Below are positions 24,834 to 53,486 of a stretch of DNA of 64,000 nucleotides, one piece after another. The translations under genes were made by a program, and so were the position numbers. A model generated the notes under the pieces. That model did no database searches and was not told the origin of the DNA. It was given only the letters and a program-made list of their open reading frames with translations. Source of the DNA: a virus; IMG/VR virus record IMGVR_UViG_3300029940_000031; one strand, 5' to 3'. Within the stretch, counting starts at the first letter, position 1; each line of letters begins with the position of its first letter.

Positions 24834-25220
24834 ATGGAGAGACAATTAACATTATTACCGACTATTGATAGAGAGACAGAAAAACAGGTTCAGAAAGAAG
24901 TAGTGAAAATACTAAAGGAATACCGCGCATTGAAAACGCGTTTTGAGAATGAAGTGGAGTTAAAACACGAAGGAATCAGTTTGTTCCCGGAGATTAGAGA
25001 CACGAGATATATTAGCAATATCAAGTTCAAGCAGATCGATAAGGCTTTAGGGTACGTTTTAGACTATGACGAGGCAGAAATCATCAAGAAGAAATACTTA
25101 AATGCAGATAAGCCGAAAGACAGCTTTATTTACACTGAATTATCGATGAAGAAAGATCACTTCTATTATAAGAAGAAAAATGCAATTCGATTGATCGCTA
25201 CATCTTTAGGGATGATTTAA
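24834..25220 (+). CDS. ArpU-family late transcription regulator
   Basis: 128 aa; LPTIDRETEKQVQKEVVKILKEYRALK start is typical of ArpU-like proteins; last gene before the packaging side of the genome. Confidence 0.65.
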   Translation: MERQLTLLPTIDRETEKQVQKEVVKILKEYRALKTRFENEVELKHEGISLFPEIRDTRYISNIKFKQIDKALGYVLDYDEAEIIKKKYLNADKPKDSFIYTELSMKKDHFYYKKKNAIRLIATSLGMI

Positions 25221-25278: not shown

Positions 25279-25617
25279 TTATTTTTTAGGCATCCATGTA
25301 TGTCCGCAATTCATGCAACCATTAACAATATTTTTTCTACCAACAAATCCACTGAATAAAATTATCGGTGGTCCTAGAAGTACAATAAGAAGACCAACAA
25401 TTGCAGAAAGTCCAACAACTCCATCCATAGAATTTCGAGGAACTATAACATATAAAAAATTAGAAACTATTCCAATAGTTATAAGTGTACCTAACAGAAG
25501 AAACAGAATAAAAAACGCCCTTTTGAAATTATAACCACGCTTATTACCGACTATTTGATCTGATTTGCATTTCCTACAAACCACGCGCTTTGTTACTTTT
25601 TCTTGTTGTACCGTCAT
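25279..25617 (-). CDS. Membrane protein with zinc-ribbon motifs at both ends
   Basis: CRKCKS ... three hydrophobic helices ... CMNCGH. Confidence 0.7.
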   Translation of the reverse strand: MTVQQEKVTKRVVCRKCKSDQIVGNKRGYNFKRAFFILFLLLGTLITIGIVSNFLYVIVPRNSMDGVVGLSAIVGLLIVLLGPPIILFSGFVGRKNIVNGCMNCGHTWMPKK

Positions 25618-25745
25618 GTCTAACCATCCTTGCTTTTATAAAATTATAATAGCTTAATTATATGATATTATCACCTGAACTGGATACAAATATTATCAAA
25701 AAAAGAAAAAATATAATAAATTGGAATGTTTATGTTTTTTAAAAC

Positions 25746-25768
25746 TTCGACAAAATACCGACAAAAAT
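25746..25768 (+). promoter_or_regulatory. Shared upstream motif, plus-strand copy
   Basis: TTCGACAAAATACCGACAAAAAT (CGACAAAATA / CGACAAAAAT direct half-repeats), then TTGATA about 20 nt downstream. Confidence 0.5.
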
Positions 25769-25799
25769 GGGGACTAAATAGGGGGAATTTTGATAATGA

Positions 25800-26617
25800 A
25801 ATCAACGGTATTCTTAATGTACAAGCCCTTTGACAACCGCATATCGAAGAGGATTAGTACACCTATAAGTGAAACGTTCTTATGCGAGAATGTCACGTTA
25901 ACGTATACCGCATGGTAGGGCGGGCAAGGCGGTAAGAACCCGCGTTAAGACGAAAAGACCAATGAATGTATAACAATGACATATTTCAGTATGGCGGGTG
26001 TGAGATAACTCGCATTTGTCATGCTGTTTCTATTGTATTTATCAATCAGCTCAGAATGCGTCCTCTGGGTTGATAATAAATATAAGTCTATTTCTCTCTA
26101 ATATGTCGGTTCTTGAAAATGAAATGGGGGTGGTTGCTCATGATTGAGTGACACTTGCATTCTAAAAAGCTAAAAAGTATACGTATCTCGTACATTAGTA
26201 ATTACTCAAGATTCTTATTAATGACCAAAACGAGGGCAAAGAGTTCCACTCTTTGTTTGAGCCAATACAGCGGAAACATTCCCCTTCCGTCCCTCTAGTG
26301 TATTGGTTCAAACAAGGCGTCGGAAGAAACATATACGTCTTGGATATAAATTATTGTATAAACGATTTAATCAGCTAAGGCCATGCGACAGCCGATATAT
26401 TGACCAGCTCTACGGAGTATAAACGAGAAGATTCTTAGTCTTTTCCTAGCCACCGAACGTAAAGCGCGTAGCTAATAAGAGCTAAAAAATTACATGATGC
26501 GGTGGCTTGGAGAAGGTTGAGAGTAATCAGCCTTAAAATGATTGCGAAATTTCCCTTTCGTAAATGTTTCTTCCATCCCCTTGAAAGAAAGCTGTCACTC
26601 CGGTGATGGCTTTTTTT
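25800..26617 (+). ncRNA. Candidate long structured non-coding RNA (family unknown)
   Basis: About 0.8 kb with no ORF of 60 aa or more that has an RBS; visibly more G+C than its flanks; helices 26237-44/26248-55, 26259-69/26299-309, 26448-55/26500-07; ends in terminator 26590-26617. Confidence 0.4.
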
Positions 26618-26626
26618 ATAAAAGGA

Positions 26627-26646
26627 TATTGTTGTCAATTGTCGAA
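26627..26646 (-). promoter_or_regulatory. Shared motif, inverted copy upstream of 26691
   Basis: TATTGTTGTCAATTGTCGAA; together with the upstream AGGATAT it also fits AGGAnnT-N14-GAAT (sigma-H-like). Confidence 0.4.
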
Positions 26647-26690
26647 TAAATAAAGGTGGTTAGCACAAATATCCAAAGGGGGAATGTAGT

Positions 26691-27146
26691 ATGAAAAGCG
26701 TAGAAGTTAATGATTCTTTTACTATTGAAACTTGTATTGGTCAAGCAATGATAAAGGACCGAGAAGCAGAACTTAGAGATATTCTAAAAGGCGTGTCTCA
26801 ATTTCATGATTATGATAAGGAATTTCATGTATTCTATCCACAAAACATGTACGATCAAGAAAAAACTTACAAATTGTACTTCTTCTTCAAAAATGAAGTT
26901 GTTATCGGAGAAAGTGTTAAGGATGAAAATAAAAAAGAATTCGTCACGATTACTAGAATGAAGTACCAAAATATAAACGAAATTAAGATTTTACACCTAG
27001 ATGATACATATTTTCTGCATGCGAAAGCAATTGAAATTGGATTTAATAATGGAAAAAGAATCAAACTGGATAGCTTAGAAGATTCTAAAGCCGGCAAGGT
27101 AGATTCCTTTACAAATAAAATTGAACGTATATACACAATGCTATAA
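26691..27146 (+). CDS. 151-aa protein, unknown function
   Basis: RBS AAGGGGGAA; own terminator. Confidence 0.7.
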   Translation: MKSVEVNDSFTIETCIGQAMIKDREAELRDILKGVSQFHDYDKEFHVFYPQNMYDQEKTYKLYFFFKNEVVIGESVKDENKKEFVTITRMKYQNINEIKILHLDDTYFLHAKAIEIGFNNGKRIKLDSLEDSKAGKVDSFTNKIERIYTML

Positions 27147-27152
27147 ATAAAG

Positions 27153-27183
27153 AAAAGTGCATCCATAATGGGTGCACTTTTCT
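27153..27183 (+). terminator. Intrinsic terminator
   Basis: AAAAGTGCA-TCCATAATGG-TGCACTTTT followed by CTTTG. Confidence 0.8.
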
Positions 27184-27310
27184 TTGTTATATATAAATTA
27201 CACATTAAATGTGAATTTGAACAAAATGGACATTTGGTTAGGAGGATTCTATATAAATAGGTAGAATCTAATTACTTGGTTTACATTTTAATCCAAGGGG
27301 TACAAATTCG

Positions 27311-27720: not shown

Positions 27721-27933
27721 ATGGGATGGGATAATAATTTTGGACATTCTCGAGATTGTAATAGATTTTGGGATGATTTAGTATTTTGCGGTTGCGGCCG
27801 TAGACGAAGAAGAAACGATTTTAACGACTGTCATTGTAGACGTGACTGCGATTGTGATGAGTGTCGTCGTAGACGTAATCATGACCGCGATCGTGAGCAT
27901 GAACATGGACATGGTGAGCATCAAGATTGGTAA
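27721..27933 (+). CDS. 70-aa Cys/Arg/Asp/His-rich protein
   Basis: RBS AGAGGAGGGAA; CGCGRRRRRNDFNDCHCRRDCDCDECRRRRNHDRDREHEHGHGEH; own terminator. Confidence 0.7.
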   Translation: MGWDNNFGHSRDCNRFWDDLVFCGCGRRRRRNDFNDCHCRRDCDCDECRRRRNHDRDREHEHGHGEHQDW

Positions 27934-28800: not shown

Positions 28801-28971
28801 TGGAGGAATATGAACAGCTACGGCAGGAATTTTGAAATATAAGTAATCAGTTAAAGTAGCGAATCCGCTGCTTTTTTATTTTATAAAGAATTCACTTTAA
28901 ACATTTTTCATAGTTAAGAATACTTATGTAAATATGGTAACAGATTTGATTCTTGGAATGAGGGGATCGAT

Positions 28972-29247: not shown

Positions 29248-29292
29248 TAAGAAGAACTTTAAGTAGCCTAACAGCTGCTTTTTTATTTTATA

Positions 29293-29365
29293 AAAAAAGA
29301 ACCTGCAAACCTGCAGATTCTCCTGATAATGATTTATATAAATAAGATTCGAAAATGAGTTCAAG
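29293..29365. repeat. Direct repeat R1 flanking the 2-TM gene pair
   Basis: AAAAAAGAACCTGCAAACCTGCAGATTCTCCTGATAATGATTTAT...CGAAAATGAGTTCAAG. Confidence 0.85.
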
Positions 29366-29378
29366 AACGCTTGTTGAT

Positions 29379-29600
29379 TCAGTCTGTTCTGTAATCGTTG
29401 TTTCTAATTTTCTTTTTTATATCTAAAAATCCTATAAGCATAATTGCTATAAATATTAATTTAGTCCAATAAAATTCTTGATGGAACATTAGCCCATAGA
29501 AGAAATCAAAAGCATATATTAGACCGATGATGGGGAATAGCCAAATCATAAATTTCAAATCTTTTAAATGATATTTGTAATTATTGATTTTTTTCCACAT
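29379..29600 (-). CDS. 73-aa two-TM protein (paralog of 29619..29816)
   Basis: TAGGAG-N9-ATG; ends KKKIRNNDYRTD. Confidence 0.65.
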   Translation of the reverse strand: MWKKINNYKYHLKDLKFMIWLFPIIGLIYAFDFFYGLMFHQEFYWTKLIFIAIMLIGFLDIKKKIRNNDYRTD

Positions 29601-29618
29601 ATGTATCAACTCCTAATG

Positions 29619-29816
29619 TTATGAGGTTCTGTAGTTTTTCTTTTTAAAATCGCGCATGTTGAGGATAAAGAATAGAAGGAAGATAACAGCTCCGATGCCA
29701 TTAATCCAGTAGTATGTGCGCCCTGTTGTGAATCCGTTATAGAATTCATAGGCATTCCAAATTACAAGAAGTACTGAACAGACAGTGGAGATCATTAATG
29801 AGCCAAAACTTCTCAT
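29619..29816 (-). CDS. 65-aa two-TM protein
   Basis: GAGGTGA-N5-ATG; ends FKKKNYRTS. Confidence 0.65.
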   Translation of the reverse strand: MRSFGSLMISTVCSVLLVIWNAYEFYNGFTTGRTYYWINGIGAVIFLLFFILNMRDFKKKNYRTS

Positions 29817-29894
29817 GATTTTCACCTCAATTCAAAATGTTAGAACTTATTTACAATTTTACATTTAAATAAATAGATTTACAAGAAGAGGAAT

Positions 29895-29988
29895 AAAAAA
29901 AGAACCTGCAAACCTGCAGATTCTCCTGATAATGATTTATGGAGCAAGACCCGAAAATATAATACAACAATTCAAAAATGAGTTCAAG
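29895..29988. repeat. Direct repeat R2
   Basis: Same 45-nt core as R1, then a 21-nt insertion, then ...GAGTTCAAG. Confidence 0.85.
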
Positions 29989-53255: not shown

Positions 53256-53486
53256 CTACATCCAAAATTCATTTTCATTTATGTTTTTCCCTAACTTCTT
53301 CAATCCCCTTGTTATTTGGGATATAGTCGAAAATTTAGGTGTGTATTCTTTATCATTACAAACTTTTGAAATAGTACCCCTACTCAACTTAGCAGCCTTC
53401 TCTAATTCCCCTTGTGTGATTCCTTGTTTATCTAACCACTTACCAAATTTACTACGTTTTTTGCCTAATCCAAACACCTTTACCAC
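53256..53486 (-). CDS. XRE-family HTH protein
   Basis: GITQGELEKAAKLSRGTISKVCND; start codon uncertain. Confidence 0.7.
   Translation of the reverse strand: MVKVFGLGKKRSKFGKWLDKQGITQGELEKAAKLSRGTISKVCNDKEYTPKFSTISQITRGLKKLGKNINENEFWM

Follow-up and report, generated by a model that had tools for sequence, protein, structure and literature searches.

The stretch of viral DNA analysed in this work, IMG/VR record IMGVR_UViG_3300029940_000031, is 64,000 nucleotides long (hereafter the window). Between the gene of an ArpU-family late transcriptional regulator (24834-25220, plus strand; NCBIfam TIGR01637, 47 bits for a cut-off of 43.1) and a plus-strand open reading frame (ORF) at 26691, the longest plus-strand ORF has 47 amino acids. 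Comparison, folding and the absence of a conserved ORF led to the assignment of positions 25805-26617 (~815 nt) to a structured non-coding RNA, all of whose features described below are on the plus strand. A first-pass annotation made from the letters of the window had proposed that a structured non-coding RNA of about 0.8 kb lies in 25746-26617, that this block has no plus-strand ORF of 60 amino acids or more with a ribosome-binding site (RBS), and that it is richer in G+C than its surroundings. These proposals were borne out: the 47-amino acid ORF is the longest of the plus strand in this block, and the G+C content is 0.38-0.40 within the RNA versus 0.27-0.33 in the immediate flanks. The 39-codon ORF considered there does exist (39 or 42 codons, 25790/25796-25918), but its product is not a conserved protein: the equivalent ATG of phage IEBH reads another frame across the conserved AAGCCCTTTGACAAC block. 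No conserved ORF was found among 45 distinct full-length homologues, whose longest ORF varies in strand, position and length (46-138 amino acids). The plus strand of 25805-26620 folds with an energy of -261.6 kcal/mol (z score of -7.55 relative to dinucleotide shuffles), while the minus strand of the same stretch reaches only -1.99. Because of the covariation described below, the G-U pairs that work on one strand only, the strand asymmetry of the folding energy and the lack of a conserved ORF, the segment 25805-26617 is very probably a member of a family of structured plus-strand non-coding RNAs.

Comparison of the window by blastn with phage records gave matches in 22 records, all of Bacillus cereus-group phages, with 75-87% identity over 0.5-0.9 kb. 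They include the Cecivirus phages IEBH, 250, LY4, PfNC7401 and PfIS075, as well as 0105phi7-2. Nearly all these matches fall in annotation gaps of the GenBank records. In the curated record of 0105phi7-2 (locus L001, OQ317942.1, 49076-49972) the series of locus tags skips 0105phi72_078 exactly over the RNA, which suggests that a gene call was removed there. A core of ~170 nt is also found in Waukeshavirus, Rockvillevirus and related phages, whose alignment showed that the 3′ ~330 nt are common in their entirety. Scanning IMG/VR with a pattern added 65 loci, and a second scan using the C-rich tail as pattern added 22 more together with ~18 chance matches. The exact core pattern was found 10 times, always in B. 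cereus-group species, in a scan of one genome per species (185,579 genomes), a search that may miss divergent relatives outside this group. The family totals ~100 loci, all in phages or prophages of the B. cereus group and none outside, and the copy of the window is ascribed to a temperate phage of this group. Loci with enough upstream DNA and a tblastn regulator match always have an ArpU-family or sigma-like regulator gene upstream, in the same strand; the phages that share only the 3′ half of the RNA have an upstream factor with a sigma-70 region 4 domain (hereafter sigma-type phages). Two loci, L030 and L062, with 4 kb of DNA available upstream, gave no tblastn regulator match.

Base pairs were counted in three MAFFT alignments built with our own anchors and scored against structures that we specified. 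The sequences share kinship, a situation in which shuffle controls overstate significance, and the 3′ partners slid by 1-3 columns were taken as the fairer comparison. In the alignment of 26129-26355, 98.8% of the cells are paired and 9 pairs changed on both sides (1-2 in the slid control). The segment 25971-26160 has 99.1% of its cells paired and 15 pairs changed on both sides (2-3 in the control), while the values for 26422-26551, where the sigma-type phages were included, are 94.6% and 8 pairs (1-4 in the control). The total is 32 base pairs with changes on both sides, and 25-48% of the cells are paired in the slid controls. The first-pass annotation had put forward covariation in homologous phage regions as a check of its RNA, and the count answers it in the affirmative. 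At least eight helices of the predicted RNA are backed by comparison. Entire hairpin modules were exchanged or inserted among relatives between the conserved blocks.

The RNA opens with a 5′ domain (25805-25985) that is strongly conserved in sequence, being near-invariant in 42 distinct sequences. It comprises a GCGGG/CCCGC hairpin (25920-25943, loop GGUAAGAA) with one two-sided pair, in 4 cells. Little covariation is available in this domain because its sequence hardly varies: the first 180 nt are almost invariant and covariation neither supports nor refutes their structure. It is followed by hairpin B (25987-26026), an 18-bp G-U-rich stem and a U-rich tract that resemble a terminator or a pause site. 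Its energy is -25.4 kcal/mol (z -7.1), terminator scans list it as terminator-like, and 99.8% of the cells are paired. Ten pairs of hairpin B vary one-sidedly, from G-U to A-U or G-C and the reverse; since its G-U pairs are possible on one strand only, they argue for a plus-strand RNA. Hairpin P-A (26033-26085; 9 + 10 bp) has 12 two-sided pairs, 99% of its cells paired and a z score of -5.5.

A Shine-Dalgarno (SD)-like sequence, the G-box GGGGGUGG (26126-26133), lies downstream and is followed by AUG AUU GAG UGA (the whole element spans 26126-26151). It resembles an ideal SD, with an AUG at the usual SD spacing and a stop after three codons. Reading AUG-AUU-GAG-UGA as a coding sequence was rejected: it covaries as a hairpin instead of as codons. 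This 4-bp hairpin CUCA/UGAG (26137-26148) changed on both sides in three of its four pairs, and is found as CUCA/UGAG, UUCA/UGAA, UUUA/UAAA or UCCA/UGGA. The sigma-type phages have AAAGGGGUUGAUUCUC-AUG-UAG at the position of the G-box, so that the G-box and an AUG at SD spacing are kept in both phage types. STAB-SD, the 5′ stabiliser of the cryIIIA mRNA of B. thuringiensis, is likewise an SD-like sequence in untranslated RNA of the same bacterial group, and the phage G-box GGGGGUGGU resembles its ideal GGAGGUGAU. The phage G-box differs in lying ~320 nt into the RNA, ahead of a 3-codon (or start-stop) mini-frame, and a stabilising role is only putative.

The first-pass annotation had also named four helices. 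All are present and three of them are supported by covariation; the one that is not, CAAAGAGT/ACTCTTTG, corresponds to the small hairpin CAAAGAGU/ACUCUUUG (26237-26255). This hairpin has 98% of its cells paired, but its bases are invariant or changed on one side only (A-U to G-U), and it has a competitor in the adjacent helix, which can be extended downwards (alternative pairing with 26309-26317). The second one, GAGCCAATACA/TGTATTGGTTC, with 6 pairs changed on both sides, is part of hairpin P-B (26251-26317; up to 19 bp, 6 two-sided pairs). The C-rich apical loop of P-B (26270-26298) exists in at least five unrelated versions in 46 sequences, one of them carrying CUCCAUCCCCUUGAAA repeated, and all 46 contain CCC or CCUCC; the loop has thus stayed C-rich through four or more replacements of its sequence. 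In one member (L060:3011-3317, minus strand of IMGVR_UViG_3300030497_000372) the loop is replaced by an insertion of ~75-100 nt on a fully compensated stem (GAGGTAACAG/CTGTTACCTC). The insertion folds at z -3.4 and has two T-arm-like motifs (GGTTCAATTCC and GTAGGTTCGATTCCTAC). Neither ARAGORN nor Rfam identified a tRNA or tmRNA in L060, and no tRNA family is among the Rfam matches of the window.

Hairpin E (26314-26341; AAGGCGU/ACGUCUU with a loop starting by CGGAAGAA) has 100% of its cells paired and an almost invariant stem, an invariance that is partly ascertainment, as hairpin E served as a search anchor. Pairing of its loop sequence GGAAGAAAC with GUUUCUUCC, perfect in the window and imperfect in most relatives, was not adopted. 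The long hairpin L1 (26440-26515), common to the sigma-type phages, includes AGCCACCG/CGGUGGCU and an inner hairpin at 26457-26469; 94.5% of its cells are paired, with 3 + 1 two-sided pairs. The AGCCACCG/CGGTGGCT helix of the first-pass annotation belongs to this 13-16 bp helix with 3 two-sided pairs. Hairpin P-D (AAGGUUGA/UCAGCCUU, 26513-26534) has 4 two-sided pairs.

The 3′ end of the RNA is a module that resembles the RsaE/RoxS riboregulators (26533-26616). It is composed of a hairpin (26542-26563, loop UUUCCC), the seed UUUCUUCCAUCCCCUUG (26567-26583) and the terminator. The likeness was measured against the Rfam model RF01820, whose gathering score is 79 bits. The window scores 29.2 bits (E 0.018) with the full model aligned, and relatives score 51.1, 47.4 and 45.0 bits (E 1e-5 to 2e-4) and 43.6 bits at the equivalent spot, also over the full length. 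The opposite strand of these spots in relatives gives the known mirror-image matches to the ylbH leader. The alignment spans the RsaE 5′ hairpin (UCACA...ACAU-CCCCU-UGU...CGUGA), the unpaired UUCUCCCAUCCCCUUU and the terminator. When folded in isolation, the module forms the hairpin with its UUUCCC loop, 14 unpaired bases bearing UUCCAUCCCC and the terminator (z -6.2). The C-rich hairpin loop corresponds to the CRR1-type feature (CRR: C-rich region) and is UUUCCC in the window and AUAUCCCCU or AUUCCCCU in relatives, among which there is also a third version of the loop that has no C-run. The seed of the window is UUCC-AU-CCCC, unpaired in the module fold; most relatives have exactly CUCCCAUCCCCUU and some match the Rfam consensus UUCUCCCAUCCCCUUU exactly.

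The first-pass annotation had placed an intrinsic terminator at 26590-26617, as found here: a 9-bp core stem with a UCCG loop and U7 (-18.4 kcal/mol, z -7.3), kept across the family with varied, compensated stems. A consensus terminator scan did not list it in the window and listed the orthologous hairpin of IEBH. No promoter-like site was identified in front of 26533 by scanning the sequence, and the bases just upstream of the module take part in helices L1 and P-D of the longer RNA, which covary. Since all scores are below 79 bits, the sequence shows no separate promoter for the module and its upstream bases are engaged in covarying helices, we call it RsaE/RoxS-like without assigning it to that family. 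A genuine relationship is nevertheless likely. In RoxS, C-rich regions pair with G-rich SD sites, and CRR2 and CRR3 are two bases apart (PMC4409812). The phage module is laid out in the same order, with a C-rich hairpin loop, a seed that is of the CCC-AU-CCCC type in most relatives and UUCC-AU-CCCC in the window, and an intrinsic terminator. It differs from RsaE/RoxS in scoring below threshold, in being borne by phages and not by the chromosome, in the weakened equivalent of CRR2 (UCC) of the window copy, in its fusion to ~700 nt of upstream structured RNA with no recognisable promoter for the module itself, and in its placement under a late activator, while RoxS is under ResD/Rex. RoxS-type seeds were sought in other phage lineages by an exact TTCTCCCATCCCCTTT search of IMG/VR, which returned only this RNA family and the ~18 unrelated chance matches. 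A second TTCTTCAATCCCCTT of the window, at 53296, is a chance match inside a minus-strand ORF. In phage PfNC7401 (L004:3113-3175), and also in locus L065, the C-rich seed is directly followed by a DUF3800-VIII RNA motif (RF03075, 60.4 bits for a cut-off of 40.2) in place of the plain terminator hairpin of other members.

Upstream of the RNA, four direct repeats with a spacing of 11-12 bp (CGACAAAA, CGACAAAA, GGACTAAA and GGGGAATT; 25748-25789, plus strand) form a putative ArpU/Ltr box. They are followed by the -10-like hexamer GATAAT (25792-25797, plus strand), which has no -35 and was aligned with the hexamers of all promoter types (GATAAT, GTAGAT, ATGAAT, GCAAAT and TAAAAT, each followed by G). 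The first-pass annotation had the block start after a copy of a shared upstream motif plus TTGATA. No further copy of the repeats was found in the 64-kb window, and what precedes the RNA is the set of four repeats and GATAAT. Transcription presumably starts near 25804, and conservation of the RNA sequence begins just downstream of the hexamer. In many loci the arpU stop codon is immediately followed by 2-4 direct repeats with a period of ~11 bp and by a -10-like hexamer without a -35. The five repeat types follow the ArpU clades, a correlative observation: the window and 0105phi7-2 have the same repeat type and the same ArpU C-terminus, while IEBH and PfNC7401 differ in both. An inserted minus-strand gene (25279-25617) separates arpU from the repeat box in the window. 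It codes for 112 amino acids with CxxC…CxxC ends and two hydrophobic segments and has no match in Pfam or NCBIfam; relatives have at this place nothing, a DNA methyltransferase or another small gene.

Experiments with RinA, LtrC and ArpU established that the late promoter is specifically activated through repeats just beyond the activator gene, which are both necessary and sufficient for this (PMC3753634). ArpU-family proteins are activators, and the specificity for the late promoter resides in their C-terminus (PMC3753634). Because the direct repeats of the window resemble the Ltr boxes of the literature and vary in step with the ArpU clade, the RNA probably has an Ltr-dependent late promoter. 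This arrangement gives good grounds to regard the RNA as what ArpU-dependent late transcription produces first. The likeness to the promoters of RinA, LtrC, ArpU and LtrA (Quiles-Puchalt et al. 2013, PMC3753634) lies in the unit length (7-8 nt), copy number (2-4) and location of the direct repeats, just past the activator gene, and in the tie between repeat specificity and activator C-terminus. The difference is that the staphylococcal and enterococcal promoters directly precede terS, whereas here a structured, terminated RNA of 0.5-0.8 kb comes first.

The RNA was compared with known families. Rfam searches at gathering scores gave no family above threshold in the window and 12 relatives; neither at these scores nor up to E = 10 did the window and its relatives yield anything for GOLLD, ROOL, OLE, HEARO, introns, riboswitches, T-box or 6S RNA. 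When matches up to E = 10 were considered over 25500-26800, six were obtained; none of them is GOLLD, ROOL, OLE, HEARO or a group I/II intron, and the weak matches to miRNA and HTH-XRE models (E 0.4-8) are ascribed to chance. Comparison with GOLLD, ROOL, HEARO and introns was a check proposed in the first-pass annotation: none of them matches and RF01820 is the only meaningful match. The RNA shares with GOLLD and ROOL the character of large, conserved, multi-helix non-coding RNAs of Firmicute phages. It differs from them in having no match in sequence or structure, in being confined to the B. cereus group, in its tie to a late regulator and in its 3′ module similar to a small RNA (sRNA). A further comparison is with lambda 6S RNA and StxS of Stx phages, short RNAs (74-194 nt) that start at the late promoter PR′ and end at tR′. 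The RNAs of this type are made constitutively and extended by the Q antiterminator, and StxS is an example of a late-promoter product that works in trans as an sRNA. The RNA of the window occupies an equivalent position, starting at a probable late promoter after the late regulator gene and ending at a terminator ahead of the late genes, but its regulator is an activator, its length is 4-10 times greater and its structure is extensive. No paper tying RoxS/RsaE to phages or describing this RNA region was found in the literature searched. The element is new to Rfam 15, to the annotation of deposited genomes and to that literature. Phage-borne structured RNAs and riboregulators with C-rich seeds are already known as kinds; what appears to be new is their combination in a structured RNA of 0.5-0.8 kb at an Ltr-dependent late promoter, with a RoxS-like tail and conserved 5′ domains.

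The interpretation that we prefer, with a probability of about 45% for the statement as a whole, is that a late, terminated RNA acts in trans through C-rich anti-SD seeds and mimics the RoxS of the host. Transcription would start at the ArpU-dependent late promoter and stop at the terminator of the RNA. Either this terminated RNA or a 3′ piece processed from it could then act in trans, a step put forward with moderate strength. The C-rich seeds of the 3′ tail, of the hairpin loop of the 3′ module and of the P-B apical loop would pair with G-rich SD regions. By mimicry of RoxS, the translation or stability of host mRNAs of central metabolism, or of earlier phage mRNAs, would be repressed late in infection. 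More tentatively, the G-box (26126-26133) may mask the 3′ seed in cis, or bind the 30S subunit and stabilise the downstream RNA. Polymerases reading through the terminator would go on to the downstream late genes. We favour action in trans because of the RsaE-like alignment, the conserved seed, the C-rich loops repeatedly found on a covarying stem, the conserved terminator and the variability of the DNA beyond it.

Several observations weigh against this interpretation. RF01820 has no match at its gathering score of 79 bits in the window and 12 further loci, and the CRR2 equivalent is degenerate (UCC) in the window copy. The seed model makes use of ~100-150 nt only, and the conserved 5′ ~700 nt are left unexplained by it. 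No extended antisense target above chance was found within the window, where seed matches are only ~1.7-fold above expectation. In 26 of 43 RNAs no internal partner suits the 3′ C-rich seed better than the G-box, but this is weak evidence as complementarity is expected for any anti-SD/SD pair; the seed prefers the G-box because it is the only G-run available to any C-rich seed. A more far-reaching version, which we regard as doubtful, is that temperate phages of the B. cereus group captured the host RoxS/RsaE and fused it to a large structured RNA, a single molecule that would both gate late transcription, through the promoter-proximal terminator-like hairpin and the final terminator, and, through sRNA mimicry, reprogram the central metabolism or the translation of the host.

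The main rival is a leader acting in cis on the late operon, in which case the RNA would form the 5′ end of the sole ArpU-dependent transcript. In phage HK022 the put RNA allows RNA polymerase to resist terminators, and the structure described here could likewise confer terminator resistance on the polymerase or gate its read-through to the packaging genes, the RoxS-like tail being incidental or secondary. Such a leader agrees with the extreme sequence conservation of the 5′ domain and with the terminator-like hairpin B located ~180 nt into the RNA; sigma-type phages have a hairpin followed by U8 ~100 nt in. It would also have terminators to overcome, since terS is 1.7-3.5 kb downstream and they are found in between (27155-27190, 28853, 29261 and IEBH 4837). 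The window has a single Ltr box, and terS is what such a box drives in the published systems (PMC3753634). The half shared by ArpU-type and sigma-type phages is, however, the 3′ one and not the promoter-proximal one, and in the window the way from the RNA to terS is interrupted by minus-strand genes. The strong conserved terminator followed by variable DNA fits a discrete RNA product, and Rfam searches gave no likeness to a known antiterminator RNA. On balance we hold the cis leader to be unlikely.

The length of ~0.8 kb, the many covarying helices among invariant unpaired blocks and the swappable peripheral modules would suit a large ornate RNA with a structural or protein-binding function in the manner of GOLLD and ROOL, that is a scaffold, a multimer or a device for protein sequestration whose C-rich motifs make tertiary or protein contacts. 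GOLLD and ROOL also reside in phages (PMC12286853), and member L060 has its insertion with T-arm-like motifs. Against this, none of the large-RNA Rfam models matches up to E = 10, and the significant RsaE-like alignment covers a known riboregulator design; the idea is given a low probability. Still lower odds are assigned to a decoy or sponge, an RNA that would have no mRNA targets of its own and would use its G-box with the start codon, or its RoxS-like tail, to titrate host factors such as 30S subunits, a RosA-like sponge of RoxS or the RNases acting on RoxS. The conservation of the G-box and AUG at SD spacing in both phage types and the preference of the seed for the G-box in 26 of the 43 RNAs are in line with it, as is the control of RoxS by a sponge RNA with G-rich sites (PMC8216469). 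A single G-box per RNA is a poor design for a sponge, though, and the CUCA-UGAU-UGAG sequence covaries as a hairpin and not as codons. Finally, the location of this unannotated region between the replication/regulation and packaging modules could call to mind a decayed protein gene or a DNA site (cos/pac, origin or recombination site) that makes no RNA. This is scarcely credible: no ORF is conserved in frame, strand and position, compensatory changes keep helices whose G-U pairs work on one strand only, the folding energy is strand-asymmetric, and the ends of deposited phage records fall elsewhere.

Large conserved structured RNAs are rare and mostly without known function. The one described here offers three handles: a probable promoter with its activator, a terminator and a tail whose chemistry is understood from RoxS/RsaE. 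If the mimicry of RoxS is true, phages would hijack a core metabolic riboregulator of Firmicutes, and the RNA would give a direct route to RoxS-type targets in the B. cereus group, including B. anthracis and B. thuringiensis. If RoxS was captured, the RNA would define a new class of large phage RNA and be the first phage mimic of a core Firmicute sRNA. The picture of late transcription also changes, as the putative Ltr-dependent promoter is followed not by terS but by a non-coding RNA of 0.5-0.8 kb and a terminator, which raises the question of how late transcription gets to the packaging genes. Many deposited phage genomes contain ~1 kb of “empty” DNA that could now be annotated.

The DNA past the terminator diverges into many classes among the loci. 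Because the terminator is conserved and the downstream DNA variable, the RNA behaves as a unit of its own. In the window it is followed by a DUF3908 gene (26691-27146) with its own terminator (27155-27190), then by small ORFs, a serine recombinase gene and minus-strand genes, and terS is found only at ~30182; in IEBH and LY4 terS is 1.7 kb downstream with another terminator in between. The sequence TGTCGAATA (26648-26656), just past the RNA terminator, recurs there in many loci and resembles ATGTCGAAAT found at the presumed promoter upstream of the RNA in sigma-type phages. The element ATTACACATTAAATGTGAATTTGAACAAAATGGACATTT (27196-27236), which has a palindromic core, is conserved downstream of the RNA terminator in IEBH, 250, LY4 and many IMG/VR loci and may be an operator or a promoter; in the window the DUF3908 gene and its terminator are inserted between the RNA and this element.

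Further downstream, a plus-strand ORF of 70 amino acids (27721-27933) has an extremely high content of Cys, Arg, Asp and His (…CGCGRRRRRNDFNDCHCRRDCDCDECRRRRNHDRDREHEHGHGEHQDW); its RBS is good and a terminator follows it. Near-identical terminator hairpins (AAAGTAGCGAATCCGCTGCTTTTTTATTTTAT) are found between the RNA and terS at 28853-28874 and 29261-29280, and in IEBH (L002:4837-4860), a recurrence that suggests shuffling of small gene-plus-terminator cassettes. A direct repeat of ~47 bp (AAAAAGAACCTGCAAACCTGCAGATTCTCCTGATAATGATTTAT) with a terminator-like hairpin is present at 29286-29332 and 29896-29942, and its two copies flank two small minus-strand ORFs resembling membrane proteins (29379-29825).

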